NCBI GenBank assembly: GCA_964016885.1
Contig: OZ024743.1
Coordinates: forward strand, 372,000,001 to 372,064,000
DNA: 64,000 bases
Direction of reading: 5' to 3'
From: Eledone cirrhosa
Taxonomy: Eukaryota
This document shows, piece after piece, positions 10,390-43,559 of the stretch. The notes below the pieces were generated by a model. The model made no database searches. It saw only the letters and a list, made by a program, of their open reading frames with translations, and was not told where the DNA came from. Each line of letters starts with the position of its first letter. Position 1 is the first letter of the stretch. A program made the position numbers and the translations under genes.

Positions 10390-10505
10390 ATTGTATGGAT
10401 AGGCCAGGTTTACCAGTGCTGCAGCATGAATGATAAAGTCGATCTCAGTGCACATGTGGAGATAGTCATCTGTGTTCATCCCCAGGTTGGCAATAGCCAC
10501 ATCAC
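10390..10505 (-). CDS. NRPS-like A-T-R enzyme, exon 9 in window (reductase domain)
   Basis: ttcag|GTGATGTG...TACAAT|gtaagt; (G)DVAIANLGMNTDDYLHMCTEIDFIIHAAALVNLAYPYN, the extended-SDR HxAAxVN motif. Confidence 0.93.
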
Positions 10506-10549
10506 CTGAATATTTAAATATTACAATGTTTATTGTATAACATTGAACA

Positions 10550-10955
10550 CGTTACCTGTGTGTGAGGTGAGATGCTTCATGGTAATGAGACAAGAGCAAT
10601 AAATGCAGAGGATATGTGAAGGCTAGAAGGAAATGAAGCAAACATTCTCTGAACAATTAAGTATTGATGAGTTGGATATAAGAAGAATCAGATGTAGTGT
10701 GCAAGAGAGAAAAGTGTGGTGTGTATGGATGAAGATCATTGAATGAAGAAGTGAAAAGGAGCTACAGTTGAGGGAGGCCAAGGAAGAACTGGGCAGAGAT
10801 TATGAGAGCTGATTTTAAATCACTAAAACTTAGTTAGCTTGACAAAGGACTGCAACAAGTGGAGGAATGCTGTGCTAGAAAAGACCTGCCCAACCCATGC
10901 TAGCATAGAAAAAAACAGATGTAAAATGGTGGTGATGATAATGATGATGATGAAT
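10550..10955 (+). mobile_element. Old RTE LINE 3' fragment
   Basis: Degenerate MLHGxET..RLEGNEA-like sequence, aacccatgctagcat 3' motif and (GAT)n tail. Confidence 0.7.
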
Positions 10956-11909
10956 GGTTACAGAGACATTGCTACAATATAAGTGAGGCCTTGGAGAGTC
11001 ACGACCATGATCTTTATGAGTGGACGCAAGTGTGAATATATCTCTTCTGCCATAATGATGAGTTGATTCAAGCTTTGTGAATTCAATTTTGGTGGATGGG
11101 AACTGTATAGAAGTCCATCAGATGAATTGTACTTGTCATTAAAAGGACTAGCCTTATTGAATAGTGTCACATTGAGTCTTTTAGAGGATTGTATCACAGG
11201 TACAAGTGTCTGTGGAATACTCAGCCATTCACACTATTGGTAGTTCTGTTGATTGAACTAGAAAATTCATTGTCAAACTGATGAGAGATCCATTAACATG
11301 AGATTAATCCACTTCAACTGTGAATTGAAACTAGGTGAGAGATTTGGCATACTGTGTGAGAAATTCATAGTTAGATAGAAGAGGAGGAGGAGGAGGTGTA
11401 CAGTCAATTGATCTCAGTTTATGGCTAGAATCCATTTTATTAACACTATATGGATAAAAGGAAAAGTTGACTGGTTAAATTTGAATTCAAAATATAGATA
11501 TTTTGAATATCAATAATATAAATACAAATATTATAGTGTTTTCAGTCGTATATTCCACCATTTCTGTATCTCCATACAACAATTTGTTAGTGTCAGGAAG
11601 CTTGAGATTTAACTTTTAACCTGTAGTGATTCAGTCGAAAATGTCTAAAAAAAAAAAAGGTTTGTTAATTCAAATTGTGTTGTTTTGCACTTTTTAAGAA
11701 TGTCTTGCTATTATGGTTCCATGTGATTTGTTAATTCAAATGTTTATAGTGTTTTTACAGATTTTTGTGAAAATTTGCACTATTAAACTAAAAACTTTAA
11801 CATTTTATATTATGCAGTCATAGTATTGTTTTATACTTTAAAGACTGGTTGTTAATGTGACGTCATGTGATGACATTTAGTAATCAAAAGCAGCAGAAGG
11901 CATAATCAC

Positions 11910-12075
11910 CTTTGACAGTTGCTAATCTGCTGTTCATTAAATTTGCAACATTCTTCTGTTTTTCTGTTGCTTTCGAAGCTTCTTTAGCCAAAACACCAAA
12001 TTTTTTTAAAGAATCCATCAGCCGTTTCTTGCTATTCATATTTGGTTGTTCTCGGACAAGACAATAAATGAATGT
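11910..12075 (-). CDS. NRPS-like A-T-R enzyme, exon 8 (reductase domain)
   Basis: ctatag|ACATTC...GTCAAAG|gtgatt; TFIYCLVREQPNMNSKKRLMDSLKKFGVLAKEASKATEKQKNVANLMNSRLATVK(G); 166 nt, phase 0 to 1. Confidence 0.9.
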
Positions 12076-12901
12076 CTATAGAAATATAACAAATAAATTC
12101 AATGTAAAACATTTTACTTAAAATATAATTATTAAAAAAATATAGGTTAGTCAGTAGAGGGGAAGTTGTGCCCATGACCTTTGCTGGCACTCATGGACTT
12201 GTATGATAAATACAATCAATGTTCAGTTTGAATATCTGTTGGTTAATATCTGTGTTGAATAAGAGTGTTGATGACCAAGTTGATAGAGTATAGGCCAACT
12301 ACATAAGAGGTCAGTATTTAAATAAATATTTGGATTAATTAAAATTTATATATATATTTCTGAAATGATTTTTATTGCATTTCCATTTTTAGTCTAGTTT
12401 ATTAGGATTTGTAATTTCAGATGTTTGCGTGAATCTTGTTGTTATTGTTACTATTGAGTAGCCCTTTCACTGTCGCTGTTGCAATTGTCTTAATAGTTGC
12501 CACTGTTGCTATCATTAGTGTTGTCATAGTGATCATGGCTGTCATTATATTCTTCATCATTACTATTGCGATCACCATTGTAATTATCATTCACCATCAT
12601 TGCAATAATCATTATTATGATTGCCGTTTTAATCGTCATACTTTTTTACACACAGAAATTTAGCCATCATAGTAACATTTAGAAAGTCTTAGTTTGTAAG
12701 ACGACAACTCTGTAAAATCTATGTTTGATATTCTGCTTTACTGTGGTACATTCACAGCTAGTGTGATTTATTACTACCCCTTTAGCCATATGTGAAATTT
12801 AGGAGGTATTGGTCTATAATACACTTTACCGGTGGACCAGGTGCATGCCAGTAGAGGTTGGGAGGTGAAGACCTGCAAGTCATTCTTTTTGTAAAGCCTA
12901 T

Positions 12902-13027
12902 GGTAAAGTGGGCATTACAGGAGAGAGAAAAGGGTAAAGTGGGCATTACAGGAGAGAGAAAAGGGTAAAGTGGGCATTACAGGAGAGAGAAAAGGGTAAA
13001 GTGGGCATTACAGGAGAGAGAAAAGGG
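12902..13027. repeat. 31-bp minisatellite x4
   Basis: ggtaaagtgggcattacaggagagagaaaag in perfect tandem. Confidence 0.95.
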
Positions 13028-14393
13028 AGAGACATTAAAAACAATGTGGAAGCAGCAGAGAGGACATCAAGGTAGCTATAACTGAAGAGAAGTGACCAGT
13101 GGCATCAGTAGTATGTATGCCACTTAAGTGTCTGAAGTTTCAGCAACCTCAATGAAGATGAGGCTGTATGTTGTAAGACCTGAAACATCCACTGACTCCA
13201 GGATACAATACTGATGATCTATCCTATATATGTAGGAAGAAATTGAACTAGTTATCACTTCCCTTTTGAGCATATATATATAAAATTTATAACACGTTAG
13301 TCTATAACACTGCAACTTAACAAGATATATCCTACTTGGTTCATAAGTAGTGTCAGTTCTTACTCCTCACTTGACTATATGGGAAATTTAAGAGACATAT
13401 AACACTGTAACTTTACAATGATCTTCTATGCTACACTAATTGCAAATGCCAGTTCTTATTATATGGGAAATTTAGGAGGTATACAACACTGTATGTAATT
13501 TTGCAAGATCTTACTTCATATTTTGATATTATGTGCTACACTCACTGCTAGTGTTAGTTCTTGATTATCTTGATTATATGAGGATGCACCCTAATTTTAA
13601 CAACCAAATGTTTGAAAAAAAAAAAATAAACCACCCTTGGCCTCCAGGACGCATGGTAGATTTTTGAGACTTATTTTATGAAAAAAGTAGTGTCTTTGAT
13701 GCCGGGGAAATATGATATATAATACATTTTATGAGATGTATGCTTTATCTTAATTTTCTATGTTACACAGAGTGCTAGAGTTAGTTCTTCACTGTATCTC
13801 TGCCTGTCGTTTCTACCCACCATACCCCCTATTGTGCTTTATTAATCATTAAGGCTATCTCTGCTGTAGCATTTCCGTTGGTCTCTGTATTGTTTGACTT
13901 ATTTCTGGGAATAGAACTTTCATTATCTGTCTCACCACCTAATATAATTTTAAGTATCAATATAAATTATATAATTAGGAAACGTTTTTGTTGGAGACAA
14001 TGAGAAAAAACAATAAAAGAAAAAACAACTTTAAAATATAATAAACGATAACTATGGCCTTGAAGACATTATTTTCTTTTGAAAATTGTTTACAATTTGA
14101 ATATTAAAAACAAATAATTTTAACACTTTTGTTAGCACAATACCCATGACTTTCAAATAATTTTGAAAATAATCAAGAATTTGGAGTGAATTAGTAAAAC
14201 TACTAATTTTCTCATTTTTAAGCTGGTGTTTGGAACATAACAGAAGTTCTTACATAAAATTATGGTGGAAGGATTTTAGATAAATATAAACACTTTAAAA
14301 CAGTTTTGTAAACTAGAACCATGGGTAGTTTCAGGCATGTTGGTGTCAAAAAGATTAAAGAAAATAATTTGATGGTTTCTTTGAGACTAATAC

Positions 14394-14529
14394 CTTTGTG
14401 TTTAAAAGAAGTTCCTGTATCAAAAAAGCTCCCAAGAATCCAGTTGCTCCAGTGACAAAAATTCTTCCTTTGTGCCACCTATTGCCAACATGGAAAGATC
14501 TCCAGAATGCTCTCAGACTCATATCAACA
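14394..14529 (-). CDS. NRPS-like A-T-R enzyme, exon 7 (start of reductase domain, Rossmann motif)
   Basis: aacag|TGTTGAT...ACAAAG|gtatta; (N)VDMSLRAFWRSFHVGNRWHKGRIFVTGATGFLGAFLIQELLLNTK. Confidence 0.95.
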
Positions 14530-14899
14530 CTGTTATTATACAAGAAATGTAAAAATTGGATTAAATAAATAGCAAATATTTAACAGGAAACATTTGTTTG
14601 ATATCTGTTAACAGTTCTTTGATCTAGATTTTTTCTTCTTCATCAAAAGTACTTCTGTATGAAAAGTAAAGCATTTAAACCGGCCGTATCTGGCCAGAAT
14701 TCTTTCACCTCTTTCTGTTCAAACTGGCTGTAACTGGCCACTCATACTGATGTTAAGGTGATGTTCTAAAAATAAATAATATCAAAATTTCAAAGATTCA
14801 ATATTATGTGAGATAATTATGTGAAACAAAGCCTTCACCATGAAAATATAATAGTAAATATAGAGTAATGTAAATACTAAAGGGTTAAGAAGTGTGATA

Positions 14900-15545
14900 C
14901 CCAGAGCTTGTGCCTGGGTATTTTGCATCCTAGGCTAGCTCTACAATGTGTGCCCTAATATCCCAAATAAAATAATTTCACCTTATTGTTTGGTAACCTG
15001 ATGAACCTAGTTTTTGAAACGTCTTACTCAGATCACATCAGCAAAATTACTAAGCCTGCATTTTCCACTTTACAGTTCACACTCACCCATGCCAAATCAT
15101 CTAATAGGTAATAATTGTTTCTACTTTAGGCACAAGGCCAGCAATTACCCAGTGCATTACTGGTACTTTATTTCATCGACCCCGTAAGGATGAAAGGCAA
15201 AGTCAACCTCGGCGGGATTTGAACTCAGATCGTAAAGGGACGTAACTAATAGGTAATAATACCATACAACCATCTCCACTATTATGGATATCTCCACAAT
15301 GCTGTTAGATGACAAAGATGTTTAGCAATTATTTATTGGTCACAGGAAATTATTATACACTGAAATTTATTGGTCACAGGAAATTATTATACACTGAAAT
15401 TTATTGGTCACAGGAAATTATTATACACTGAATTTAATTATACAAATTTATATAAAACTGTAATCCTGTGAGGTTCTGTAATGCACCTCTCTGAGGTCTG
15501 TATCCTGCCTAGTTGGTCTCAATGGTAGCATCGCTCCTGGTGATA
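14900..15545. repeat. Unclassified dispersed repeat (related copy at ~51520-51965) containing a SINE and a 34-bp x3 tandem
   Basis: Shared blocks such as aaaattactaagcctgcatttt and cacactcacccatgccaaatcat; tandem atttattggtcacaggaaattattatacactgaa at 15331-15432. Confidence 0.7.
15112..15250 (-). mobile_element. tRNA-derived SINE fragment
   Basis: Minus strand has B-box gagttcaaatccc, then gccgaggttgactttgcctttcatcc...aaagtaccagt; same family at 38590, 61335, 62610 and 62810. Confidence 0.8.
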
Positions 15546-16544: not shown

Positions 16545-16763
16545 TTCACAAAACCAGGATCATGCCGTTCCACTTCTGCATGTAGGTTAGGCTGGGTATA
16601 CATTTGTTGAACCCTTTCGATAGATGGACTTAGGTTGAGACAGCCCTCAATGAGTTGAGCTTGCTGTTTTACTGTTGGAAACAGAAACAAGTCTTTTACA
16701 GTGAGCTCTACTTTAAATTCCTCCTTCAAGTCATTAAGGAGTGTTGCTGCTAATAGGGAATGT
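16545..16763 (-). CDS. NRPS-like A-T-R enzyme, exon 6 (carrier domain Ser plus linker)
   Basis: ttgcag|ACATTCC...GTGAA|gtaaat; (G)HSLLAATLLNDLKEEFKVELTVKDLFLFPTVKQQAQLIE...HAEVERHDPGFV; completes FFDLGGHSL. Confidence 0.95.
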
Positions 16764-18858: not shown

Positions 18859-19082
18859 ATATATATATATTATTGAATAAAATGACAGGATGCCATCAAC
18901 AAGATTCAACATGAAAGATGGGTGAGTTGCATAAGATTGAGTGCTTTTCCGAATATTACATCATGGTTTATATGGAATGACCAGTTCTATCCAGTGGTGA
19001 ACCACCAAACTTAAATATATATATATCGTTAAACAATGATGATATATATATATATATAGTAAGCAGTAAATAAATATATATA

Positions 19083-22000
19083 TGTAGTAAGCAGTAAATT
19101 TCCCCTTGAATTCTTGGAAACTAACTGCTATTGTACTAACTGACCTTACCGAGAAACTGGCCAATTGCGAGCCAGTTTCTCGGTTTGCCCATGAAGCGTT
19201 GCGTAGACCAAAGTGCATCGTTAGGAACTCAAAGGCACAAAAGGGTGTAGTGATAGCTGTCTTCGGAATATCAGCTGGATTAAGTGGCATTTGATGATAC
19301 GCTCTGACTAAATCCAGTTTAGAAAAAACTGTGCATCCGTGCAAGGAAGAAGCGAAATCCTGAATCTGAGGAATTGGGTATCGGTCAGGCTCTATTATTG
19401 CATTTAACCGTCGAAAATCTCCTGTCGGGCGCCAGTCTCCCATACGTTTTGGAACCATGTGTAACGGTGAAGCCCAAGGACTGGTAAAAGGGCGAATTAT
19501 TCCCAATTACCACATGTGATTGAGCTCCGCTTTAGTTGCCTTTAACTTGTCTGGTAGAAGCCAACGAGGGCGAGAGAATACTGGAGCACCCTTGGTTTCG
19601 ATGAAGTACTTGGTTGAATGAACAGGAGTGCCCACTGTAAAGTTTAAATATGTTATTTCTAGGAAGGATTCCAAAATTGAATGGTACGGATTATCTGAAG
19701 CAGCAACAAAAAAGACTGGACTGACATGTGGTACAGTCGAAGCCTTACCAGGAATCGAAAGGTATGTGTTGGCGTCCAACAAACGATGTGTCCTCATGTC
19801 CATGAGGAGCTTGAAGTGATGCAAAAAATCTGCGCCGAGAATTGGAAACGGCACATCTGTTATAGTGAAGATCCACGTAAAATCTCTACATAAGTTCTAA
19901 TCCAATGCACGAGATATTTGTCCATATGTGGGAATAGCAGAATTATTGATGGCCTGCAGCGAAATCGATGAAAGTGCGGGTTTGTTTTTCAGAAGCTCAC
20001 ATGGTTGTCTGCAGTGAAGAGCGTTGCTGCCAAATTTGCTGTGGTAATAGCAATAATCAGTGGGATTTGGCGAATATGATATCCGGCAGCTCGGTGACTG
20101 CGAGGGATGGCGTCTACGTCGATGGGGCGATCTTGTTCGTTGGCGTTGTAGGAGTTGAACTGACTTTGTCAACTTCTGAATGGCTTTCCACATATCTGTC
20201 GAAGGGTGGCCTTCTTTGGAGGAGACTGAAGACACAGGTGGAAACGAAGATGTGGAAGTCTGTGCAGGAATGTTGCGGTGGCCTGTATAATCTAGTATTT
20301 TATCCGCCGATGCCGCGAGCTGTTCCACCATACTGCCTTCCATCATTGGCGCCAATATCTCTTGTACTGTCAGTGGCAATCACAACAGAAATAATTGTTT
20401 TAACATTTCGTTGTCTGCTGTGGCATTCTCTGCTAGCTCCTTCATCCGTTGTAAAAGCTGCGAAGGCAATCTGTCTCCTAGGTGTTCATTGTTAACCAGA
20501 ATGCTAAATCTCTTTTCCGCCGTCTGCGAATTTCTTCTTAGAATTTCAGGAGCCGGATCAGTAATCAAATCCTTGACCGTGTTAGTCAAGGAAGTCGGGA
20601 TCGCACTCAGCAATATGTGCAATTGTTTTGGGTCTACCAAATCATTGGCTGCGAAATGTGCTTCCATTTGCGCAAACCACACACGCACATCACCTGAAAA
20701 ATTAGGCAGGGAGTTGTCACTCATTGTTGAAAATTTTGTATGGAACCAAAAAGACGGAACTAAGTTGTAATCTGTGTAGCAAAATGTATATTACTTGCCG
20801 AATCTTGAAGTGGAAAAATTTGTATTTTTGTGCCAAATACAATATGTCTCCCGTTTTCGCGCACAATTTCAGTGTGCATGTGCAATGGAAGTAAGATGGC
20901 ACGAAAATTTCAATGTTGGACAAGAAGACAACGCCATGTTGGAATTAGAAGTTTCATTTTCGTCGAAAACAAATTTTTTCCAAGTATTAACCAATTTTGT
21001 GGAAAGCTTTCGTTTTCCTTTTAGTTAACAGAAAAAAATTGATAAAGGAATGTAGTTCACTGAAATATTGAATTGTTCGACTATAGATGATCATATCAGA
21101 GGAAACGAAATGGAAAAGGAAGAAAAAAAAGTAACATATATTTTTGCCAAAACGAATGTGTGTTAGTTCATCATTCCCAATGGTAGTTCTGTCAACTTCC
21201 CAATACTTCCTTGTGAAAAAAAAAAAAAAAAAAAAAAAATTTCTCTTTCCAGAAAGTCTATTAAATTTTTTTTTTTTTTTTTTTTTTTTTAAAAACTTTT
21301 GTTGTATGAGATGCGTTGTAATTGGATTACATGTTCGTATCACGTCTATTACATGTTCGTATCACGTGTATTGACCACTATAGAAAATGAATGGTTTGGT
21401 CATTTTACTATTTTATTTACTCCAATTTAGAAATAGTATCAGAAGGCGATAGGCTGCGTTAAATGTCAATTGGATTGGAACAACAAGATCTAGTCAAAGT
21501 ATTTTTGAACATAATATTTATTGTGTGAACGTATTCTCCAAGTGTGTTTGCGAAATCATCAGAGACCTGGATTTTGTATACTGCTATATAGATGACATAC
21601 TCGTTGCTAGCACATCTCCAGAGGAACATGCTAAACACCTTCGTTTACTATTCGAACGATTTAGGAAGTACCAAGTTCGCATTAACCCTGCGAAGTGTAT
21701 ATTTGGTACCTCTTCTCTAGTTTTTCTAGGTCACATCATTAGTCCTACAGGCATATCACCTTTAGCGGATAAAGTGAAAGCTCTTCAAGAATTACCTCCT
21801 CCTACATCATTATGTCAATTCTTAGGACTGCTAAATTATTATCAACGTTTCATCCCACATTGTGCTGAGTGCATAGCACCTCTTTCTGAACTTACGGAAT
21901 CGAAAAAAGAAAAACGAGTCTATTTCTTTAGACCCAGCTCAACTCGAAGCTTATTCCAGAGTGAAACAGGAATTAGCTGATGTCACTCTGCTTGCACATC

Positions 22001-24540
22001 CTGTGCCTGATGCTCAGTTTTCACTGGTCGTTGATACATCAGGCACAGCAGTAGGTGCAGTTTTACAACAGTATCACAATCAGAGTATGCAACCATTGGC
22101 ATATTTCTCAAGACAGCTTAAACCCGCTGAAACCCGATACAGTACTTTCGGCAGAGAACTGTTAGCGATGTACTTGGCAATCAAACACTTCCAGCATTCG
22201 TTGGAAGGACGCCAGTTTACGATTTTCACAGATCATCGCCCTTTGACATTTGCTCTCAAAGCGAAACCCGAGAGATACTTGCCACATGAAACTCGATATT
22301 TAGATTATCTATCACAATTCACTCGTGATATACGCCATATTTCTGAATCACAGAATTTAGCGGCAGATGCATTATCTCGTTTACCTATCAACTCACTATT
22401 GACAAAAACCGATATTGATCTACGTTTGCTCGCTGCTGACCAGCCTGCTTTGGACAATTTGGATTTAGCTGCAACCGAATTTGCGACGTGCAAATTCAAA
22501 CAATTACCTGTAAACAATTCTGACACAAGCATCCTGTGTGACATATCGACTGATTCACCTCGACCCTTCTTTCCGGAACTTCATCAGCGAACAGTTTTTG
22601 ACACGTTACACAACCTCTCACACCCTGGAATCCATTCATCAGTGAAACTCATTACGGCTAGATTCTTTTGGCCAAATATGAGATGAGATATCACTGCATT
22701 GTCTCGTTCCTGCATACCTTGCCAGAAGTCTAAGGTGCACAAACCCATTCTAGCACCTCTGGGCACATTCAATGCCCCAGATGCCCGCTTTGACCATATT
22801 CATATCAACCGACCTAGTTGGACTTTGGCCGGTCTGTCATAGATATACATACCTTCTTACGAGTATCAACCGTTTTACACGTTGGCCTGAAGCCATTCCT
22901 CTCGAAGAGATTTCAGCAGAATTGGTAGCACGAGCTCTGATGTCTGGCTGGATTTCGCGTTACGGTGTCCCTTCCACGATCACCACTGACCGTGGCAGAC
23001 AATTTGAATCACATCTCTTCCATGAACTTTCCAAAATTTTAGGGATACATCGTACACAAACTATTAGTTATCATCCGGTTTCAAATGGCATGATAGAACG
23101 CTTTCATCGCCAATTAAAAGCAGCATTGCGTGCTTATCCCGACCAGCAAAAATGGAGTGAATATCTAACAATTGTTCTTCTTGGCTGTCGCGCGGCGGTC
23201 AGGGAGGATCTTGGATATTCCCCAGCGGAATTGCTATACGGAACATCTTTATCCTTGCCGGGACAGATGTTAGTCCCAGTCGACGCATTGCGGGAAGATC
23301 CTACGTTATATATTAACCGATTGCGATCATATTTCAATGATCTTCCGCCTATGGGAACATGTCAACAGATGATTAAATCTTCGGTTCCTAAAGACATTGC
23401 TTCTTGGACTCACATTTTTCTACGTGAAGACTCAGTGAAAGGACCACTGGTACCACTCTATACAGGACGCTACTGAGTCTTGGCAAAAACGGACAAACTT
23501 TACCATAGATATTTGTGATAGGAATCACACAGTTTCAGTAGATAGGGTTAAACAGGCCTTTACAGATGCTCCAATACCTGAACCCTATACACCCCCCACA
23601 TACAATACATTGCATGTTGCACCATCACGAGCATACTCACCTACAATGTCACAAACACCTTCCCTACCTCCATCTACATATGTTACAACGACTCGTAGTG
23701 GTCATAGAGTGCACTGGCCTCAAAAACTGAGTAGAACAATTTATATATGAACTTTGATATTGTTCAAACTTTTGACTCTTCTGAAAATAATTACTTTTGC
23801 TTGTTTGATTATGTTACGTTTTATTTTGCTCTTTGGTAACCATGCATGCATTTTTCTCGGTATATCCGATTTTTTCTCTTGTTTCATGTCATTTTGCGAT
23901 GTTGCATATTTTATACAGCTCATATAATATGAGAAGAGTGGCAGCCGCCATATTCCTGGCTTGGCTTATATATTGATATCGATCTTCGATCTAAACGGAG
24001 GGTAATGTAGCAAGCAGTAAATTTCCCCTTGAATTCTTGGAAACTAACTGCTATTGTACTAACTGGCCTTACCGAGAAACTGGCCAATCGCGAGCCAGTT
24101 CAACATATCAGTCAATCACTAATGTATTACGTCATAACTCTTATCTCTAGAGTTCAACAGATAGTTCTCAAATGAGAACACGTTAAATTCTGTTGTCCTC
24201 ACCAATTCGACTTGGGTTCGACTATAATCCAACAAATGCCTATGTTAATCTTGGAACGGAAAATATGACATCTATAAACTCTCGACAACTTACCAAGGTA
24301 ATCTAGTATAATATGCATACACTTTGTAATCTTTGTCACACAAATATGTATTTCTTTGATGACATCTGCAAACACACTTGGAGAATACGTTCACACAATA
24401 AATATTATGTTCAAAAATACTTTGACTAGATCTTGTTGTTCCAATCCAATTGACATTAAGCGCAGCCTATCGCCTTCTGATACTATTTCTAAATTGAAGT
24501 AAATAAAATAGTAAAATGACCAAACCATTCATTTTCTATA
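19083..24540 (+). mobile_element. Ty3/Gypsy LTR retrotransposon, decayed, with an internal inversion of ~19185-21551
   Basis: gag (VRVWFAQMEA, YCYYHSKFG), protease (ILGADFL), RT (SPWASPL, YIDDILV), RNase H (YFSRQL, TDHRPL), integrase ([19 protein letters not shown]); LTR start at 19083 matches 24006. Confidence 0.93.
24006..24540 (+). repeat. 3' LTR of the Gypsy element
   Basis: Begins TG after a purine-rich tract (aaacggagggtaa); first ~95 bp match 19083-19177; last ~170 bp match the reverse complement of 21379-21551. Confidence 0.9.
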
Positions 24541-24548
24541 TATATATA

Positions 24549-27500
24549 CTAGCAGTTTAGCCCGGCATTGCTCGGGATTGTTCATTTGCTATGAAAAGTT
24601 ACATACAGGTAAACGTGGCTTGAAAGCGAATAAGTTTATCAATTAAGTGCATAAAGCAGTTGAACCGGTTATTAAAAGTTACGAACCAATTAGCATTTTG
24701 GACAATCAATGATGAGTTAATAATCTTCCAATAGCAAATTTAGCAGACCAAAGTTGCAAGATGGTGGCCCTGATGCCGCTGGGTGTCAGATCTGTCCGCC
24801 ATGGGTGACTCTAACAGGAAATAGTTTTCCAGACATCATAGCTCCAACACCTCCAACACCTGCACCAACATCTATAGCACCTCTTTGTAGACGATATTGA
24901 GGAGTGTAAACAAAAAGTCCATTCCTGCTCCCTACGCGGGAACAGGCAACATAAAGTTGGCCATGGGAGAAGCAAGGCTCCCCCAAACATATGCCCGCCA
25001 CCGACAATGTTTGCCCTTGTGACTTGTTAATGGACATGGAAAAACATGGTCTCACCGGGAATTGGGATCGCCGGAAATTGAACGGAATATCTGACACCGA
25101 GTGGAAAAAGTTCATCCTTGGAATGAAAACATTATCCCCTCTCCCGCACCCCATTACAATGGTGGTCTCAATCAAGTGGGGCGTCAGTGACTTGACAACC
25201 ATGCGAGTACCGTTGCACTGCTTTGGTGGACGCAAGTTCTTTATTAGCATAATGGGACAGCCAACCCTAAGCTTAAGAATGTGAGGTGGGAGCTCTGGGG
25301 GCTCAAGGGAATTTAATAACTCAACCGGATATTTAACAATATCGTCGGGGTCTGACGTCCAGTCGATAGATTTGAAGATGTTCTCTTTACTGGGAATCTT
25401 CTCAAGCAGGCAGCGTTTGCCGAAAATCTCCTGATAGCAGAAGAATTACGCCAACCATAGGAGCCATAGAATCCCTAATGTCTTTCAGAGTCCTGTCCAA
25501 TGCCTCAAGGGCACCCTTGTGTGCCATTGTGCACTCATCCCAACCAATGTGGCAACATTTTTTGAGAACCAGAGCTTCGTGTGAACTCTTGTTGATATTG
25601 CATGTTGGTGTCTCAGTTTTTACTAAATCCAAGGGGAGTTTAAAGGTTGAATGTGCTGTCCTGCCTCCCGGCAGCAAAGTAGCAGCGATCCCGGACGATG
25701 CAACGGCCAACGCAATTTTTTTCTCCTGATGAATCTTAGCAAGAATCAATTTCGTTACAAAAGTTTTTCCGGTATCCCCAGGAGCATCGAGAAAGTAAAC
25801 ACCCCCAGTCTGATTTTGAACCGCGTCAATGATAGTTAAATAGGCCAACCTTTGGTCCGACAGAAGTTTTGGCTCATTTTCCTCTAAGTATTGGGAAAGA
25901 GATTCGATGTCATATGCTGTTTCCCGCAACAAATCCGGGCCCAACGTGTTAGCTTCCTCTCTGACGTTTGACAGCAAGCCATACGTTGCCAATTCATTCC
26001 CACCCATGTCGAGGAGGGCATCCTCGATATCAATGAGTGCCCTATTGTAGATAATGTCGCTGTAACCAACGTCCACTGAAGGATACTGCAGATGAACCAG
26101 GCACAGGAGGTCCTCAGATATGAAGTCACTGTATTTGACCCATAAAGATTTGGGATCACCCAATTCACACTTTTGAAGCAAAATGGCAAAGAGTTCTCGT
26201 AGACTTTTAGGTGATTTCAACAAACACCCTCTGCTAAAGTGGATTCCCATTGCGAATCATCTTCCAAAAGACCACGCTTAAAGCAGGCTTCCCGGTACGT
26301 ATCACATATTTCTCCATCAACAGTTTTGAGGTCCTGAAAACTTTGTGGGCCTACAACTTCATGCAGAAGAAGGCGGAGATGAAAGCATTCATGCTGACTT
26401 GGGGGCACAGTGTAAACCCTTCCAAGACAGCTGTCAAATTTTACACCAGGATGTCTTTCAACAGCCTGACCTGACTTTCTTCGCACCCAAGTGTTTTTTG
26501 ACCTGGGGGTACACAATTGTTTGCGCAAATGTATTGAACTGGCAAAGTTTGAAGAAATCCGTCAGAGTGGTCTCTTGCGGATCGGTGGCCAACTTGGCGG
26601 CGGTTTGGTCTGTAAAGTAAACCCTTTGCCCATTTTCCAAATGTACTGCAAGCTGTACTATGGCGGGGTGCCGTTGGTGTAGGAGTAAACCAAATAGGAG
26701 CCAAAAAACTTCATTGCTACTGGTGTACCGCCCCGCCAGGTATTCTGTGACCTCGTCCCTGCTATTTTCAGCTTGAAATGCGAACATCGCGGCATCAGAG
26801 CCCTTATTTATATATTTGTATATGTATTTTATCGACTTGACGGAGTTGCAAAACTCAACGTTGATGTGGGCGTTGAACATCTTCAAGAGAAGCGGGAAGT
26901 AAGGGACCACCCATCTATTGTCGACTTGAGCCCCCTTTACTGTTGTGGTGAAGCCACCGTTCTCGGGCCGTCTCCGCCTGTACAGGGGGTACCCATCGCC
27001 ACTAGTCTGAGTCTCGTCAACAAATTTTTTGGGGTATCCCTTACTGCACGACCCCCCTTTCAAACACGTGTGATGCTCATTATGACCCGACTCACACGGA
27101 CCATGTTAGCTTTGACGATGTCACGTAATTCCTGGTCAGTTGCTGGGTTAGGGATTTCAGCCGAAATGAAGCTGTCTATGGCATTTGAATTGATTTTATC
27201 AGCTAACCAAATCAAAATGTGAGCATGTGGCAGCCCTCGTTTTTGCCATTCGACGGTGAACATGTCACATTTTACAGCCCCAAATACCTGACCCTTTTTT
27301 ATTAAAGCCATGAGTTTAGCCAGTTTCAGTCTGAACACCCTGGCAATGAGGTCATGTCTGTTCGAATAATTTTGCCCAGGAAAAAGTTCACGGGTTACAT
27401 TCCGATTCATATGTCTATAGCATTAATCTGTTAATGCCCCAGAAAAGCCGTGCGTCAATACGGAAAGCTCCACTGCAGTGTTGTCATATAGGGAGTGAAG

Positions 27501-28739: not shown

Positions 28740-31700
28740 CCTCCCCCCCACCCCCACACACCACCATAGTCTATTCGACCAATCAAACCTAGCATGCCAT
28801 TTCCACTGCTGCTGCTACTACCTGCCTAACTAACTCTCTCCTCCTCTGGCGCATCCCAACACACCCTGCCATTACCCCACCACCACTGTTCTTCTAGCCC
28901 TCAATTTTCCCACCGTTATGGATGGATGAGCTGGGAATACACGAGCAACTCTGAATCAATAGATGAAATATGAATCTGCGAGCTACCAAGCACCCACGTG
29001 AAGCGCCAACCCAGAGACCCTCCCCTACGAGTGTCGACAAATGCCCAAAACTCCGAGTTGGTACCATCAATGTAGGCTCAATGAAAGGAAGAGCAGGAGA
29101 AATCGTAGAAATGCTAGAGCGAAAGGAAGTTGATGTATGCTGTGTGCAAGAGACTAGATGGAGAGGATGGTCTGCTAGAGTCCTTGTAGGAAAAAGCCAG
29201 TGCTACAAATTTTTCTGGGTGGGAAATGACGATCGGATGGGTGGTGTAGGTATACTATTAGCTGACAAGTGGGTAGATAAAGTAATCTCAGTGTACAGGG
29301 TAAATGCAAGAATCATTAAACTCAGACTAGTCCTGAATAAGACAATTACCACAATAATATCAGCTTACGCACCCCAATCGGGGCTGCCAGACGAACTTAA
29401 GGATAGGTTTTACGAGTCCCTAATACACACTACTGCTCTAACAGACGACAAGGACTTCCTAATCATTGCAGGAGATTTTAACGGACACGTAGGTAAACAC
29501 TGCGACGGCTTCAATAGAGTACATGGAGGCCATGGAGTTGGCACAAGAATGAGGAAGGATTCAGACTTCTAGAATTCTGCGACGCCAATGACATGTCGAT
29601 ATGTAACACAAACTTTAAAAAACCCGACAACCACCTGATCACCTATAGATCAGGGGAGCACTCTAGTCAGTTAGATTTTATCCTCATCAGAGGACGTGAC
29701 AGATGGACGGTCGTAAACACAAAAGCCTTCCCTAGTGAGGAATGTACATCCCAACATAGCTTAGTTGTCAGCGACCTCACGGTCAGAACTAGACGAGCCC
29801 TGAAACAGAGGCCAACCTGGAGAAGAAAGATCTGGAAGCTGAAAGTCCCCTCAACCAGTAACAGATTTAAAGATATTTTACTCAACGCCTACGACAGTAA
29901 AGAAGAACAGATAGAGACATTTAACGTAGAAGAGAACTGGGAGTTCCTAAAAAATAACTTACTAGAGGCGACGGATGAGGTTTGTGGCTGGAGTAAGACC
30001 TCAAGCAGGAGGAGAGTGACTTGGTGGTGGAACAATAAGGTAGATGAAGCAGTCAAGGCCAAGAGACAGGCATGGAAAGAATGGAAGAACGGGGGGAGCA
30101 GGGTACATTACATAGAGACCAAGAGGGAAGCTAGGCGACAAGTATACTTAGCTAGGAGGGAAGCAGAGGATAGAAAATTCAAGCATGTTTTACAACGTGA
30201 GGACCAGAAACAGGAGGTATTCAAGATTGCGAGGCAGTGTGTCAGAGATAGTTGTGATGTCATTGGAGAGAAGTGTATCCGGAATGATAAAGGTGAGCTT
30301 GCCCTCACAAGTGCTGAGAAGAAAGATGCATGGAAGAGTCATTATGATAGATTACTAAATGAGGAGAATGCATGGGAAGAAGAGACCCTACCCCACGTAG
30401 ACCCTATAGAGGGACCAGCAGTACAAGTCAGCGGCAGCGTAGTAAGTAAGGCAATCAGAGATATGAAGATAGGGAAGGCAACCGGTCCATCGGGTATAGC
30501 TGCCGAGATGCTGAAGGCATCTGGGTCTGTAGGTCACACTATAACCACACGTATCGTTAACCAGGTAATACTAGAGGGGGCCATACCAAAAGATTGGTGC
30601 AGTAGCATCATTGTCAACTGCTACAAAGGTAAAGGCGATGCACTAGATAGAGGAAACTATAGAGGTATAAAGTTGATGGACCAGGTCATGAAAGTAACAG
30701 AAAGAGTTATAGCACAGCTGATTAGGGACCGGGTGAATATAGACGAGATGCAATTTGGGTTTGTACCAGGGAAAGGCACCACTGATGCCCTCTTCCTTGT
30801 GAGGCAATTACAGGAAAAGTACCTAGCTAAAAGTAAGCCACTCTACTTGGCATTTGTCGACCTTGAGAAAGCCTTTGACAGAGTTCCACGTGCAGTAATC
30901 TGGTGGGCTCTTAGAAAACTAGGAGTAGATGAATGGCTTGTGAAAGCGGTACAAGCCATGTATAGGGGAGCAGTCAGCAAAGTTAGGATTGGCAATGAGT
31001 ATAGCGAGGAATTTAGCGTACAGGTTGGGGTCCACCAGGGCTCTGTTCTTAGCCCTCTCCTGTTCATCATAGTCCTGCAGGCAATAACGGAGGAGTTTAA
31101 GACCGGATGCCCATGGGAACTCCTGTATGCTGATGACCTCGCACTCATAGCTGAATCTATGGTAGAACTAGAGAATAAATTCCAAACCTGGAAGCAGGGA
31201 CTAGAGAGAAAGGGCCTCAAAGTCAACATGACAAAGACTAAGGTCCTTATAAGTAGACGAGAAAACAGAACCCAGATCCCCTCAGGGAAATGGCCTTGCT
31301 CAGTATGTAGGAAAGGTGTAGGTAGGAACTCCATTCTCTGCCCCAAATGCAAACAATGGGTACACAAGAGATGTAGCGGGATCTCAGGAAGCTTAATTAA
31401 GAATGTAGGATTCACATGCAGCAGCTGTGCTGAAACAGCAAGCAAACAGCCACAGGAAACAAGTACCACCAATCTCTGGGAGGGCCCTGTAGAAACAGTA
31501 GACAGCTTCTGCTACCTAGGTGACCGAATTAGCAACGGAGGTGGGTGCTCAGAAAGTACAATAACTAGGGTAAGAACGGGATGGAAGAAGTTTAGGGAAC
31601 TACTACCACTGCTAGCTGCAAAAGGCTTCTCCCTCAGAATGAAAGGCAGACTGTATGATGCGTGTATCCGAACAGCGATGTTGCATGGTAGTGAGACCTG

Positions 31701-32390
31701 GGCGCTGAAGGTGGAAGACTTACGTAGATTAGAGAGAAACGAAGCCTGCATGCTCCGATGGATGTGTAACAGTAATATACGTGAACGACAAAGCATAAAG
31801 GAATTGAGAGAGAGACTGAGCATAAGAGGAATCAAATGCTGCGTGCAGGAGAGGCGGTTACGCTGGTATGGACATGTGATGCGTATGAAGGATGACAGCT
31901 GCATAAAAAGGTGCAGAGCACTAGAAGTTGATGGAAACCGCGGAGTGGGGAGACCCAAGATGACTTGGGATGAGGTGATAAAAGCCGACCTTACCCAACT
32001 ACACCTCTCAAAGTCAATGACACACGACCGTGACTTCTGGCGTCACGCAGTAATACAGGGTACCCGACCTCCCATGGGTACACGCTGAAGCATATAAACA
32101 ATATGCCCCCCCCCCCCACCGCAAGGTGGTCGTGGAGGTGCCACGGCAAAAAAGCACCCAGCCCACACTGTAAAGTGGACGTGTAGGCGCCACGAAAAAG
32201 CACCCAGCACTCACTGTAAATGAGGTTGGTGTTAGGAAGGGCATCCAGCTGTAGAAATCAAGCCAGATCAGTTCCTGTATGAGCAAGGCATGGTCAGCCG
32301 ACCAGACACTGCCCACAACAGGACAACCCGTCTAACCCATGCTAGCGTGGAAGAACGGACGTAAAACGGTGATGATGATGATGATGATGA
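28740..32390 (+). mobile_element. Near full-length RTE LINE with (GAT)n tail
   Basis: ORF above plus 3' UTR ttaggaagggcatccagctgtagaaa...aacccatgctagc...gatgatgatg; 5' boundary approximate. Confidence 0.92.
28970..32088 (+). CDS. RTE-clade LINE ORF (APE endonuclease, RT, PHD-type finger) with a single frameshift at ~29548
   Basis: VCCVQETRW, AYAPQ, GDFNGHVG, QFGFVPG, FVDLEKAFD, QGSVLSP, LYADDL, CSVC..CPKC..HKRC..CSSC; ORFs 28970-29572 and 29593-32088 join if one A is added. Confidence 0.93.
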
Positions 32391-34053: not shown

Positions 34054-34245
34054 CCTCCTAAATCAAAGAAACTTTCTTCAATGTCAATATTGCCAAGTTG
34101 TAAAACTGTCATCCAAATTTTAGCTAGTTTCTTCTCAGTGTCTGTTGTTGGGATACCATTTAGTTCACTGTTATCTAACAATTGGCTGTTGTACTCGGGT
34201 AGAGCTTTCCTATCAAGTTTCCCTGATGCTGGGACAACTGGAATA
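34054..34245 (-). CDS. NRPS-like A-T-R enzyme, exon 5 (A10 Lys plus start of carrier domain)
   Basis: ctcag|TATTCCA...TTAGGAGG|gtgagt; (S)IPVVPASGKLDRKALPEY...TDTEKKLAKIWMTVLQLGNIDIEESFFDLG(G). Confidence 0.95.
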
Positions 34246-37114: not shown

Positions 37115-37311
37115 CTTTCCAGAAACAAGATGTATGATGGTATCATATAAAATGGTAACTTCTTCTTCAGCTGGTTTCTGATATCTTTACGAGTGACTTC
37201 ACAATTGGTAACCACATATGCTATGAGAAATTTGTCCTCTCCTTCATTCCCTTTCACCAATACAACACAGTTATTCACAAAACTCAGGGACATCAGAGAT
37301 GCTTCCACTGC
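37115..37311 (-). CDS. NRPS-like A-T-R enzyme, exon 4 (A subdomain)
   Basis: tttcag|GCAGTG...CTGGAAAG|gtcagt; AVEASLMSLSFVNNCVVLVKGNEGEDKFLIAYVV...LPFYMIPSYILFLE (A9 LPxYMIP). Confidence 0.95.
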
Positions 37312-37952: not shown

Positions 37953-38168
37953 TTGAACCTCTACAGAATATCCCCTAATTTTCACCATAGAATCACACCG
38001 TCCACATATTTCCAAGTCACCATTTGACAGCATATAACCCCAATCACCAGTTCGATATAATGTAGTGGGTTGGCTAGTCAAAGAGCGTTTCGTCTTTATG
38101 AACCTTTCAGCATTTAAGTTGGGCATCTTCAGATAACCAGTGGCAAGTGTTGGGCCACCTATGTAAAT
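37953..38168 (-). CDS. NRPS-like A-T-R enzyme, exon 3 (A6-A8 motifs)
   Basis: tacag|ATTTAC...GTTCAA|gtaagt; IYIGGPTLATGYLKMPNLNAERF...LYRTGDWG...ICGRCDSMVKIRGYSVEVQ. Confidence 0.96.
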
Positions 38169-38589
38169 CTGTAAAAATTAATGTGTTGTTGCTGTTATCA
38201 TTGCTATTTTATTGACACGAGGTTTGTTGATATGATTGAAGTTGATGCTTTTGCATGACCACAGTCCAATGACTAAAACTAGTAAAAAGATATTTTAAGG
38301 CCATTTTCTCTGCTAAAACAAGGGTTAGCTTTGCTAGCTTCATGACAAGCTTCTTCATTTTGCTCTATTGTCTAAATCATCAATTTTTAGTTATGTTTTT
38401 CTTGGTCTTCCCCTTCCCCTACTTCAATCATTCCTCACACCCAGTCACTGTCATACTTCTTCAACATGACCCAACCATTTCATTTTATTTCCCTTCACAA
38501 CATTCATTACTGGTCCTCTCCCCCAGTCACTTTCATCCTTCCATAACAGATTACAAAACTATCTCATTCTAGTTCTTTTTGTAACATCC

Positions 38590-38778
38590 ACCATTGTATG
38601 ATTGTACTGGCAGTATCGGTAGAGGGTTGGACGCCATGCTTTGACGTATAGAGTTACGGCCCTTGCCATTCTGAGTTCAAATCCTGCCGAGGTTAACTTT
38701 GCTTCGGGGTCGATAAAATAAAGTACCAGTAATGCACTGGGTAATTGTTGGCCTTGTGCCAAACATAGAAACAATTAT
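38590..38778 (+). mobile_element. tRNA-derived SINE
   Basis: A-box-like tggcagtatcggtagag, B-box gagttcaaatcc, family body aaagtaccagtaatgcactggg. Confidence 0.8.
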
Positions 38779-39099
38779 CTGTATTACTTGTGCATTATAT
38801 AAGTTGTTATATAACTTTCAGAGGTTCCAAAAACCTATATGAGATTCTATTGATTATATCGATTTTAATCAATCAGAAATGGTCCAGGTATGAAAAACCT
38901 GTATAAAACCTTTCATAATTTTTTGTATGTATAATTGGTGCATTTGGTCAGTTTTCTAACTCTTGGACTTAATGTTTGTTTTTAACTTTTGATCCATTGA
39001 GTGCTTTGTGATTGCCTAAAAAAAAATCAAATGTTGTACAACAGTTAAACTTCAATTTACAATTACTATATAAATACATATATATATAATACAGAAGAC

Positions 39100-39432
39100 C
39101 TGAATTCCCATGGGCACAGACTGTAGCTGAAGCATATATATAGCATGCACCACTCCACCCACCCACTACCATACATCCCCATGAGGAAAAACTGAAGTAT
39201 ACATCCAGTGAAGCCCCAAGCCCACACTGTAAAGTGGTCATAGGCATCATGACAAAAAGCACCCATGAGGTTGGCGATAGGAAGGGCATCCAGCTGTAGA
39301 AACCAAGCCAAAATCAGTTCTGTATGAGCAAGGCATGGTCACCTGACCTGTCATTGCCCACAATAGGATAACTCATCTAACCCATGCCAGCATGAAAAAG
39401 TGGACATTAAACAATGATGATGATGGTGATGA
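39100..39432 (+). mobile_element. RTE 3' UTR fragment
   Basis: aggaagggcatccagctgtagaaa, aacccatgccagcatg and (GAT)n tail. Confidence 0.8.
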
Positions 39433-39445
39433 TATGAATTCTTAC

Positions 39446-39556
39446 CTCCCCAGACACTCCAACAGGTTGAAGTTCCAGATTTTCGTTCATGATTGCTATT
39501 TCAACATTAGGTAGCTGTTTACCAACTGGAGAAAACTTTCGTCTTTCAAAAGTAGC
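39446..39556 (-). CDS. NRPS-like A-T-R enzyme, exon 2
   Basis: aacag|GCTACT...GGGGAG|gtaaga; ATFERRKFSPVGKQLPNVEIAIMNENLELQPVGVSGE. Confidence 0.93.
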
Positions 39557-39849
39557 CTGTTTTGGGTGAGGAATTGGTGGATTAAAGAATTTATTTATAA
39601 CACATGTATGAAGATGAAGAATTTAATGATAGGAACCAATGGCATCAACCAAATAACATATAACACAATTGCATGAAAACAAACCAATGAGGAAGCCTGA
39701 ACATGGTCATTTAATCAGCTGGAGACAGCAACCACGTTTCCCTTGAATCACAACATACCACCTTAGAAATAGTAGTGATATAATGGATAATGTAGTCCTC
39801 AAAGTTGTGGTAAGAAACTGTCAGGAGAGCTGAACACCAGAAGGTCTTC

Positions 39850-41090
39850 AGAGAAGAAACCCCCCTCAAATGACCGTTACAGCGCTTAACTTCTTAAGGA
39901 GGCCGGGCTGCATTCTGCTGACATTTAGCCATTCAGATATCAGAAACTTGCTATGTATTTAAACTGTTTCCATAAACTGGAATGGAGTACAATATCCAGC
40001 CTTAAGCCACTCTTCCTGATGATTTCTGGTTGTTTTGCCAATCCTGGTAGGTCAGCTGTACACTTCCAGTCATAAGCTCCACCCAGAAGACTCCACTCCC
40101 ATGCCCTCTATGGATAGCTGTTCCTGGCCATGATTTGCTGCCTCCTGGTGTATAGAATGTTGCTGAAGATTCTCATGATACAGATTTTACTTTTTCTGTA
40201 CTTATCACATGTACAATCTTAAGCACTTGATTGTGTCCCCACATGTATCTTTCTTGGGCTAACGCTACTCTGCATGAACACAGAACATTTTCCACCAGCT
40301 ATCTACCCTGGTAGAGTGGGCACTCAGGGTCATCTGATTTACCCCATTTCATAAGATTTGTATTTGAGGACAGATCACAGACAGATCTGAGGAGAAAACT
40401 GATTCTAACAGGTGCCTTATGCCACAAGTCATCCCAAATGGAGTACACCTTCCCACATCATCCACTGGCCCTGTTGGCTATGCTGAACTGCCTTCCAGAG
40501 TCTTCTGGAATCCTCTTTTTTCTTCACCTCCTGTAAAATCAGATCTCTCCTCATCTTTCCCCTGGCCTCTGACCACCATTCCAATTTTGTTATACCCAGT
40601 CCTTGCCTACTCGCCTGAGTGTGTCCCATTACATCTCTGATCATAAGGCTTTCTTTTGCTGCCTCCTGGACCTTCCATCAGCCTGTCTTAAGCTTGGGCC
40701 AGATCATCCTCACAACCTTGTATTCCAACTTCTCAAGCATGGTCAAGAGCCTTGCTTCTTTGACTTTGTACTCCTCAATGATGGATTTGAGGGATAACAT
40801 CAGCTTGATCTGACAACTGTAGAGTGCTACATCAGTGAGATCTGGTGGGACATCAAGCCACTTCCTTGTGTATTTGTTGATTTTGGTCTCCACCATACCA
40901 AAGCTGATATCGTATATCAGTAGAGGCTAGAGAAGCTTTGGGATCAACATGAACTGCAAACACCAAACCTTATGATCTGTAGACCTTTTTCCACCATTTG
41001 CCTTGTTTTGGCTCCTCTTTTTGTATCTTTCAGGGTGTCATTATCCCACCTTCCGAGGCTTTTGACTAGTTCCTCAGCCCCTGCTGGGAT
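39850..41090 (-). mobile_element. Decayed RLE-type non-LTR retrotransposon (Hero/NeSL-like)
   Basis: Minus strand: KVWCLQFMLIPKLL, INKYTRKWL, IEEYKV, RQGLG, QQGQW, PECPL, RYMWGHNQVLK. Confidence 0.75.
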
Positions 41091-41578
41091 ATTATAGTTT
41101 CAGATGTACAGCATCACCAGAGAATTCAGCACTATACTTTTGACCATTTGGTAGATGAAAGAATCAATCAAACCCTGGTTGATTTTGAGAATAGTAACAA
41201 CACCCATGCTAGCGTGGAAGAACGGACGTAAAACGGTGATGATGATGATGATGAACACACCCAGAGAAGCTTAAAGACTGATAAAAGAACTTTCTGGTAA
41301 GAAGAGGAGGAATAATGTGGTATATATCCAAGGGGAAAACCAACCTGTGACTTGGAAGGAGCATGTTTACAAATTCCTATCAGCTGACAATCATTGTGAG
41401 CCAGATGTACAACTGACCCACCACCATCACCCCCATTACCACTATAATCACCACCACCACAACCACAACCATAAGCAGCAGCAGCACCATCACGAGCAGC
41501 AGCACCATTACCACCCGCCTGTCACCACCACCACCACCACCATAACCAACAACAGTAACTATGAATCAATAAGGAACA

Positions 41579-43174
41579 TTGGGTTGTAACAAAAGTTTGC
41601 AGCATTTTTCTATTGGTTATGTTTAATCACGACACTAATTTGATCAAGTGACAGAAGCATATGTCATATATATATATTTTCTGAAAGAGGAAATCTCAAC
41701 ACATTTTTCTATTCTCAATATTGTGCAGATTATTTACTTCTACTGTTTTTATGATAAAATTGAAAATGGGAGGAAATGAGATACATTTTCATCATTTCAT
41801 GCTCTTTTATTTCAGCACTTTTATGCTGCACAGAAAACAATAAAGATATGTGCTGTTTATAGCAATGGTACCATAGCTGATAGTACTGTTCGCAAGTGGT
41901 TTGCTAGGTTTAGAGCCAAAACTTTTGACCTCAAATACCCTGCCCATTCAAGCATGCCTATAGTTGATAATAACCAAATAGAGATTTTAATCAAACATAA
42001 TCCAGGTAACAGAGCGTGAGACATTGCAGAGATACTTCACATATCCCATATGAGTGTTACAATTTATTTGAAAACACTTGGATACGTGAATTGCTATGAT
42101 GTTTGGGTGCCTCATAATTTATTTGAAAAAATTTTAATTGAGCGTATTTCCATCTGTGATTCTCTGTTAAAAAAAACAAAAACAATCCCTTTTCGAAAAA
42201 AATGATCATGGTTGATGAAAAATGGATTGTTTACAACAATGTGGAGCATAAAAGAAGGTGGAGAAAATGAAATTTACATTCCAAAAGCTGGTCAGTATCC
42301 AAAGATGATAATGCTTTGTATCTGGTGGGATTGGAAGGGTTAGGGTTAGGGTTATGAACTCCTTCCATGAAATCAGACATTAAATTCAGACTATCATTGT
42401 TCTCAGTTAGACAGATAAAAGAAGGTAATCAATAAAAAATGTCCAGAATTGGCAAACCAGAATGGTGTGGTCATACATCAGGACAACGTTAGACCACATG
42501 TTTATTTTTGCAGACATAGCAAGGCGGCACATGGCTTAGTCGTTAGAGCATTGGCTTTGCAATCGAAAAGTTGTGAGTTCAATTCTCAGACCGGGTGATG
42601 TGTTGTTTCCTTGAGCAAGACACTTTATTTCACATTGCTCCAGTTTACTCAGCTGTAGAAATGAGATGATAGGGACTGGGGTCCATATCATTCCACTACA
42701 AAGTGGTCGTGGAGGTGCCACGGCAAAACAGCACCCAGCACTCACTGTAAATGAGGTTGATGTTAGGAAGGGCATCCAGCTGTAGAAATCAAGCCAGAAT
42801 CAGTTCTCGTCCCACCCTTGCAAGCAGGGAAAAGCGGACGTAAAATGATGATGATGATAGCAGAAATTGGTACAGCTTGGCTTGGATGTTCTACTGTCCC
42901 CACCTTCGGGTTGTCATTGATTTCAATCCCTACAAACTTTCCTTAATAAGAGGAACTTCGATACTTTAGAAGACATCAAAACCCACCTATACCAGTTCAT
43001 GACCTAGAAAGATGCCAAGTTGTGGGTGGATCGGACCATGAAGTTGCCTCAAAAATGGTGAATGGTAGTGGAACAAAATGGAAAATATGTCATTGAATAA
43101 AGTTATGTACAACTATTTAAAAATTGGTAAAGAATTTCAGTTAAAAAATGCTATGAACTTTTGTTACAATCCAA
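41579..43174 (+). mobile_element. Mariner DNA transposon, full extent with decayed transposase
   Basis: ~30-bp TIRs ttgggttgtaacaaaagtt..gcatttt / aaaatgc..aacttttgttacaatccaa; motifs WVPHNL, DEKWI, LCIWWDWKG, HQDNVRPH. Confidence 0.92.
42523..42858 (+). mobile_element. tRNA-derived SINE with RTE-derived 3' tail, inserted in the mariner
   Basis: tggcttagtcgttagagca A box, gagttcaattc B box, ccttgagcaagacactt core, RTE tail with (GAT)n; flanking atagca duplication. Confidence 0.88.
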
Positions 43175-43405
43175 TAAAAACCATTCAGTATAATTTAATG
43201 TAAGCACCTTTCTTAAGTTATGTGATAAACAACAGCTTATTGACAAATTAATTATGTTACTAAATCCTTCCAAATTCTTGATTAATTTCAAAATTATTTG
43301 AAAATCATAGGCAATGTCTTTCATTTGAAATATTGTAAAGAAGCAAACAATAGGATGATGAAAATGAGGATGAGCATCATCATTTCTTTAAAAAGAAGTT
43401 TTTAC

Positions 43406-43559
43406 CTTGTTATGTGTGTAACACTGTGTCAAATCTACACAGGCAACGTCATGGCATTCAGATATGCTGTAGAGGTTGACAAACTGGATGTGAGGTAAAG
43501 ATTCAATACATCTTTTGAAAAATGTTGCTGTAACAACTTCTCCACAGAATATGATGCAT
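43406..43559 (-). CDS. NRPS-like A-T-R enzyme, exon 1 in window (A-domain pocket and A5 region)
   Basis: ttacag|ATGCATC...AACAAG|gtaaaa; CIIFCGEVVTATFFKRCIESLPHIQFVNLYSISECHDVACVDLTQCYTHNK. Confidence 0.93.

Follow-up and report, generated by a model that had tools for sequence, protein, structure and literature searches.

What does the intron-rich gene that lies among transposons in the genome of Eledone cirrhosa encode, and on which substrate would its product act? We analyzed a stretch of 64,000 nucleotides, called the window below (positions 372,000,001-372,064,000 of contig OZ024743.1, or C4, in a 3.0-Gb genome). A sequence-only reading of the window had joined nine small minus-strand exons into part of an enzyme with an adenylation (A), a carrier (T) and a reductase (R) domain, resembling the fungal glycine betaine reductase ATRR. 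We find that the gene is almost certainly an intact ATRR-family orthologue of the octopod type, as judged from its sequence. By analogy with characterized relatives, glycine betaine is probably the main substrate of the predicted enzyme.

The nine exons run from position 43559 to position 10390 of the window, and both limits given by the sequence-only reading are exact exon borders. Together they make 1507 nt, or 502 codons with 0 stops, with AG/GT borders throughout and phases that fit at every join. We could reproduce the earlier coordinates, borders, phases and frame in full, and the motifs that had been named all lie on the minus strand at their given places. When chains of AG..GT segments with the same nine lengths were drawn at random from the minus strand of the window, 0 of 20,000 were free of stops.

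With one exon as the query, 81 matches came up among 100 candidates, and the closest of those listed, by identity, was the Octopus sinensis protein P0003 (89%). We added 100 kb on each side of the window and mapped P0003 onto the resulting 264 kb, taking as exon borders the splice sites of best fit to P0003; the model is based on homology rather than read from RNA. The complete gene spans 187.5 kb (C4 372,129,851 down to 371,942,323) and has 24 coding exons; its introns are GT-AG in 23 of 23 cases. The frame is open from ATG to TGA over 1282 codons, and the product of 1282 aa is identical to P0003 at 1149 of 1282 residues. The window holds exons 6-14, with five exons to its right and ten to its left:

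Exons 1-5, C4 372,087,114-372,129,851, right of the window: aa 1-267, with the start codon, the P-loop, V199, F200 and W203
Exon 6, 43406..43559, minus strand: aa 268-319, A-domain pocket, with I271 in CIIFCGE and D305 in NLYSISECHD
Exon 7, 39446..39556, minus strand: aa 320-356, A domain
Exon 8, 37953..38168, minus strand: aa 357-428, with IYIGG..LATGY, YRTGD and GRCDSMVKIRGY
Exon 9, 37115..37311, minus strand: aa 429-493, A sub-domain, with LPFYMIP
Exon 10, 34054..34245, minus strand: aa 494-557, with the predicted catalytic K503 (SGKLD) and the first half of the T domain
Exon 11, 16545..16763, minus strand: aa 558-630, with the predicted phosphopantetheine acceptor S560 (GGHSL), the rest of T and a linker
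Exon 12, 14394..14529, minus strand: aa 631-676, start of the first reductase domain (R1), with the nucleotide-binding motif TGATGFLG
Exon 13, 11910..12075, minus strand: aa 677-731, R1
Exon 14, 10390..10505, minus strand: aa 732-770, R1, with HAAALVNLAYPY
Exons 15-24, C4 371,942,323-371,992,321, left of the window: aa 771-1282, with Y828xxxK832 of R1, a whole classical short-chain dehydrogenase/reductase (SDR) domain (R2) with Y1190xxxK1194, and the TGA

Genome searches with two different exons found at least one match each, one match being listed per exon. A contig of 3.9 kb encodes a relative, P0006 (1281 aa, 70% identical); this implies that a relative has a spliced mRNA. Right of the window, a pyrimidine-rich run that ends in AG precedes the start codon by 19 nt (C4 about 372,129,870); it suggests that a non-coding first exon may lie further upstream.

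The domains follow the order A-T-R1-R2 in one chain, R2 being the C-terminal classical SDR. Pfam searches of P0003 (90% identical) returned AMP-binding, PP-binding, NAD_binding_4 and adh_short in this order, all above cut-off, with the AMP-binding domain beginning at residue 14. The sequence-only reading had expected the rest of R1, with its active-site motif, and a second SDR domain to lie left of the window. Both are found there: the gene model supplies Y828xxxK832 of R1, and the second SDR (adh_short on P0003) is fused to the chain as R2. S560, K503, Y828/K832 and Y1190/K1194 align with the carrier Ser, the A-domain Lys and the R1 and R2 Tyr/Lys pairs of fungal ATRR. Because these catalytic residues are kept, the conversion of an acid to an alcohol by the predicted enzyme can be strongly inferred, the identity of the acid less so.

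To which family does such a protein belong? Identity is 89-90% to 1282-aa proteins of O. sinensis, O. bimaculoides and O. vulgaris, 85% to a full-length Argonauta protein, and 50-55% in R2 to 13 named fungal A-T-R1-R2 proteins (36-38% over the whole length). The values for Octopus and Argonauta point to an octopod, in keeping with the mollusc that the sequence-only reading supposed. A FastTree of 104 A domains (496 columns, weak backbone) placed the window protein with O. sinensis (support 0.98) and with Octopus and Argonauta among animal proteins. In the same tree, animal, protist and fungal proteins stood together, apart from six bacterial A domains of nonribosomal peptide synthetases (NRPSs; support 0.80). 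These six came from multi-module NRPSs (5,000-7,900 aa), the only proteins among the best 150 matches when the Argonauta protein P0004 was searched against 50%-identity representatives. The fungal proteins were obtained by using the R2 region of a protist protein as query; no match named as fungal appeared among the 120 of 1118 homologues listed in a second homologue search. Architecture, A-domain grouping and catalytic residues agree with the earlier call of an ATRR-like enzyme. Three motifs that had been cited for that call, K-[LIVTM]-RGY-[ST], the spacing before SGK, and VNLxYPY, do match fungal ATRRs, and the A-domain tree on which the call was to be judged groups the protein with ATRR-type proteins, with bacterial NRPSs as the only outgroup.

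Named homologues were found in placozoans, cnidarians, flatworms, nemerteans, annelids, a brachiopod, molluscs, nematodes, insects (mostly hemimetabolous), echinoderms, hemichordates and tunicates. Vertebrates are missing from the named matches listed (81 of 100 candidates; 120 of 1118), which does not imply absence. The 52 PDB matches listed include no ATRR, and in an atlas search two clusters of look-alikes came up, neither with taxa. The three Octopus orthologues (XP_029644001.1 of O. sinensis, XP_014786035.1 of O. bimaculoides and CAI9732035.1 of O. vulgaris) share the length of 1282 aa, the pocket VFWLICLHDK and the catalytic residues. Their family is hidden by their database names, which are 'linear gramicidin synthase subunit D', 'uncharacterized' or 'fatty acid synthase', and we found no published study of the three in the literature searched. 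A second PF07993 locus, on contig C1, was considered as a paralogue and rejected (best tblastn E 0.06); from its motifs it is presumably a fatty acyl-CoA reductase.

The sequence-only reading had implied that an animal enzyme of this kind would be new, and this part does not stand. Homologues of ATRR from invertebrates, nematodes and molluscs are in print, and NCBI names proteins of Haliotis and Nematostella 'glycine betaine reductase ATRR'. Genes for atrr are known from several protists and invertebrates (Hai 2019, 10.1101/559534), a recent paper states that mollusc genomes encode glycine-betaine reductases (Venugopalan and Schmidt 2025, PMC11869996), and atrr transcripts from marine protists are reported in another (PMC9321204). 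In the portions available to us of a 2023 survey of animal NRPSs (PMC10531068), the words 'betaine' and 'ATRR' do not occur. The ATRR family in animals is under-noticed, not new.

Other reductive enzymes share parts of this architecture, and we compared them by hidden Markov model (HMM) cut-off or by architecture, since Lys2, carboxylic acid reductase (CAR), Ebony and AASDH lie outside the tree. Ebony ends in an amine-selecting domain and AASDH in a PQQ-type propeller; both Ebony and AASDH/ACSF4 were rejected because two SDR domains fill the C-terminal half of P0003. We give next to no credence to a Lys2-type aminoadipate reductase, a bacterial-type CAR or a molluscan FmtATR. P0003 does score on TIGR03443 (396.6 bits) and on NF041592 (180.8 bits), but these values are far under the cut-offs of 1030.1 and 1300, and a second SDR is fused to the chain. 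Lys2 was rejected because TIGR03443 failed, the alpha-amino-binding Asp is lost (V199 replaces it) and there are two reductases instead of one; bacterial CAR was rejected because the NF041592 cut-off was not reached. Mussel FmtATR is, like the window protein, a molluscan single-module reductive NRPS-like enzyme, but it carries a formyltransferase domain and a single R domain and acts on tyrosine (Venugopalan and Schmidt 2025, PMC11869996). The same paper sets the glycine-betaine reductase homologue of molluscs apart as its own class, and Pfam finds no trace in P0003 of the N-terminal formyltransferase domain that defines FmtATR. The many transposon fragments in the introns might also suggest a dead gene or a contaminant. 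This is very improbable given 1282 codons over 24 exons without a stop, GT-AG borders at 23 of 23 introns, a length equal to that of three Octopus orthologues that are 89-90% identical, and a position on a 379-Mb contig.

The substrate is less certain than the family. In the ATRR of Aspergillus nidulans (AN5318), glycine betaine is adenylated by A and loaded as a thioester on T; R1 (Y811) reduces the thioester to the aldehyde, from which R2 (Y1178) yields choline; a cage of F201, W204 and W270 with E304 has been proposed (Hai, Huang and Tang, 10.1101/559534). We represented this enzyme by two stand-ins, Talaromyces P0299 and Aspergillus nanangensis P0307. P0299 carries F201, W204, W270 and E304 at exactly the A. 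nidulans numbers, which fixes the register: the equivalent residues of the window protein are F200, W203, I271 and D305. The Asp that would bind an alpha-amino group (the D235 site of PheA) is absent, V199 standing at this site in the window protein, as in 13/13 named fungal proteins. Two cage aromatics and the acid are kept: F200 for F201, W203 for W204, and D305, an Asp, for E304. Through the same 13 fungal proteins, the likeness to fungal ATRR extends to the A-T-R1-R2 order, the Tyr/Lys pairs of R1 and R2, VNLxYPY and the spacing before SGK. The ten-position pocket, VFWLICLHDK, is identical at 6/10 sites to VFWLWNCHEK, found in 9/13 of these proteins; besides the Ile in place of W270, it has C, L and D for N, C and E at three other sites. 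We aligned 145 proteins to the A domain and kept the 125 that span the first nine pocket sites, dropping 20 partial rows; the set is redundant, includes a few protists and has one misaligned row, P0056. F200 is kept in 125/125, W203 in 123/125 and D305 in 124/125.

The window pocket is identical to that of two nematode proteins, P0232 of Meloidogyne incognita and P0240 of M. hapla. The M. incognita enzyme MiATRR is likewise an animal A-T-R1-R2 protein; its database model P0232 shares all ten pocket residues, with an A domain 52% identical. It differs in coming from a parasitic nematode, and was tested by yeast rescue and RNA interference (RNAi; PMC11050029). The authors report that MiATRR restored the growth of yeast on 0.2-20 mM betaine and describe a His/Ile variable site in plant-parasitic nematodes (Zhang 2024, PMC11050029). 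Relief of betaine toxicity in yeast by MiATRR, together with the pocket shared with the M. incognita protein, favors betaine. This rescue, as far as described there, is the only functional test of an animal ATRR that we found in the literature searched, and it is indirect; no assay of a purified animal ATRR was found in that literature, most subscription journals being outside our reach.

If glycine betaine is the substrate, the reaction would run as in the fungal enzyme. A phosphopantetheinyl transferase (PPTase) would prime S560. The A domain would adenylate the carboxylate with ATP, using K503, while F200, W203 and D305 would hold the trimethylammonium group, and the acyl group would then be handed to the carrier, forming a thioester. 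From it, R1 (Y828, K832) would release betaine aldehyde at the cost of one NADPH, and R2 (Y1190, K1194) would use a second NADPH to reduce the aldehyde to choline. A PPTase gene of the AASDHPPT type is present in the genome (two exons, L024 and L025, C4 about 64.74 Mb). It was found with the PF22624 profile, and the stop inside the HMM match falls at an intron acceptor; the PF01648 profile gave no PPTase match in the genome. The likely role of the enzyme would be to regain choline from a stored osmolyte, for use in phospholipid and possibly acetylcholine. Squid mantle extractives include glycine betaine (PMC9455610).

Several observations weigh against glycine betaine as the substrate. The third cage aromatic, W270, is Ile (I271) in the window protein; Ile is found at this site in all three Octopus species too, and Leu in Argonauta, while Trp occupies it in 13/13 named fungal proteins and in 77/125 homologues. 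Overall identity to fungal ATRR is just 36-38%, and the fungal A domain depends strictly on the charge and size of the head group (10.1101/559534). The nematode evidence consists of growth rescue and RNAi, with no direct choline measurement in the published passages (PMC11050029), and P0232 is a 1098-aa database model that may differ from the cloned MiATRR of 1306 aa. Finally, PtNRPS1 of the diatom Phaeodactylum tricornutum has the same architecture and is reported to convert tryptophan to tryptophanol (Zhao 2026, PMC13194791). The loss of the Trp is best read as lowering the claim for betaine, not the claim of orthology, because W270 never varies in the fungal proteins seen but does so in the wider family.

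Could the same A-T-R1-R2 chemistry then serve a different or wider range of acids, the change from Trp to Ile opening the pocket? We consider this distinctly less probable than glycine betaine, though a serious possibility. The candidates would be a bulkier betaine or other onium acid (proline betaine, beta-alanine betaine, arsenobetaine or dimethylsulfoniopropionate, for example; the betaines are a suggestion only) or an aromatic amino acid. Besides I271 itself, a residue other than Trp is found at this site in 48/125 homologues (W 77, I 22, L 9, V 9, H 6, M 1, F 1), with about 16 changes on a 98-leaf tree. PtNRPS1, which has Phe there, is reported to be active on tryptophan and salicylates (PMC13194791). 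This diatom enzyme resembles the window protein in its A-T-R1-R2 order, its NVFFxW and NLYSISECH motifs and its lack of Trp at the W270 site. Its pocket, V-F-W-L-F-N-L-H-E as read by eye from the source data of the paper (PMC13194791), has Phe, Asn and Glu where the window protein has Ile, Cys and Asp. On the other hand, the remaining pocket positions are nearly invariant, and the residues other than Trp are scattered over octopods, some bivalves, starfish, psyllids and nematodes, a recurrence in unrelated lineages that is easier to read as tolerated variation than as one new function. A nematode enzyme of the Ile type relieved betaine toxicity in the yeast experiments cited above, and the passages of the diatom paper that deal with betaine report no assay of PtNRPS1 with it, so PtNRPS1 may accept betaine too. 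A stronger version, in which octopods and the other lineages with a small residue in place of the cage Trp retuned ATRR to another substrate, such as an aromatic amino acid or a bulkier marine betaine, and would make with one NRPS-like enzyme an amino alcohol new to cephalopods, seems to us unlikely. Glycine betaine is thus the substrate that we favor, yet the reduction of tryptophan by a diatom relative with a similar pocket keeps the question two-sided.

Some relatives differ further at the pocket. Two Argonauta hians proteins, P0004 and P0332, have VFWLLSSHDK, more changed than in Octopus. The Capitella paralogues P0030 and P0072 have IFYMICMHDK and are candidates for a changed substrate. 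The German cockroach, Blattella germanica, has an ATRR orthologue with a Trp-type pocket (P0249). In old diet studies, which our literature searches did not find, betaine is said to have replaced choline in this insect; the result, if right, would be explained by ATRR.

The transposon surroundings described by the sequence-only reading are borne out by domain matches to element fragments in the introns:

Broken Helitron-type element, 541-4642, plus strand, intron 14: Helitron_like_N, PIF1 and Pif1_2B matches
Broken Helitron-type element, 24786-27422, minus strand, intron 10: same set of matches
Long terminal repeat (LTR) retrotransposon-type fragments in opposite orientations, 18961-20790 (minus strand) and 21453-23476 (plus strand), intron 10: reverse transcriptase, RNase H, integrase and DUF7041
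Long interspersed nuclear element (LINE), 28967-32088, plus strand: one frame for an endonuclease and one of 856 aa for a reverse transcriptase, the latter with a PHD-finger match (E 3e-6)

The length of its reverse-transcriptase frame suggests that the LINE may be a young insertion. In intron 5, the regions at about 46990-48700 and 57400-59770 have near-identical translations on opposite strands (47818, plus, with 58522, minus; 46991, minus, with 59280, plus), which point to two inverted copies of what is probably one LINE fragment.

Choline oxidation to betaine is usually taken to run in one direction only (Hai 2019, 10.1101/559534). The idea that betaine is recycled belongs to the ATRR family and is already in print; new here are the complete gene model and a natural Trp-to-Ile variant of the pocket that is open to assay. 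If animal ATRRs do reverse choline oxidation, an osmolyte would be recycled to choline in cnidarians, molluscs, annelids, echinoderms, hemichordates, tunicates, many insects and nematodes, and this recycling would bear on the lipid metabolism and the feed requirements of these animals.

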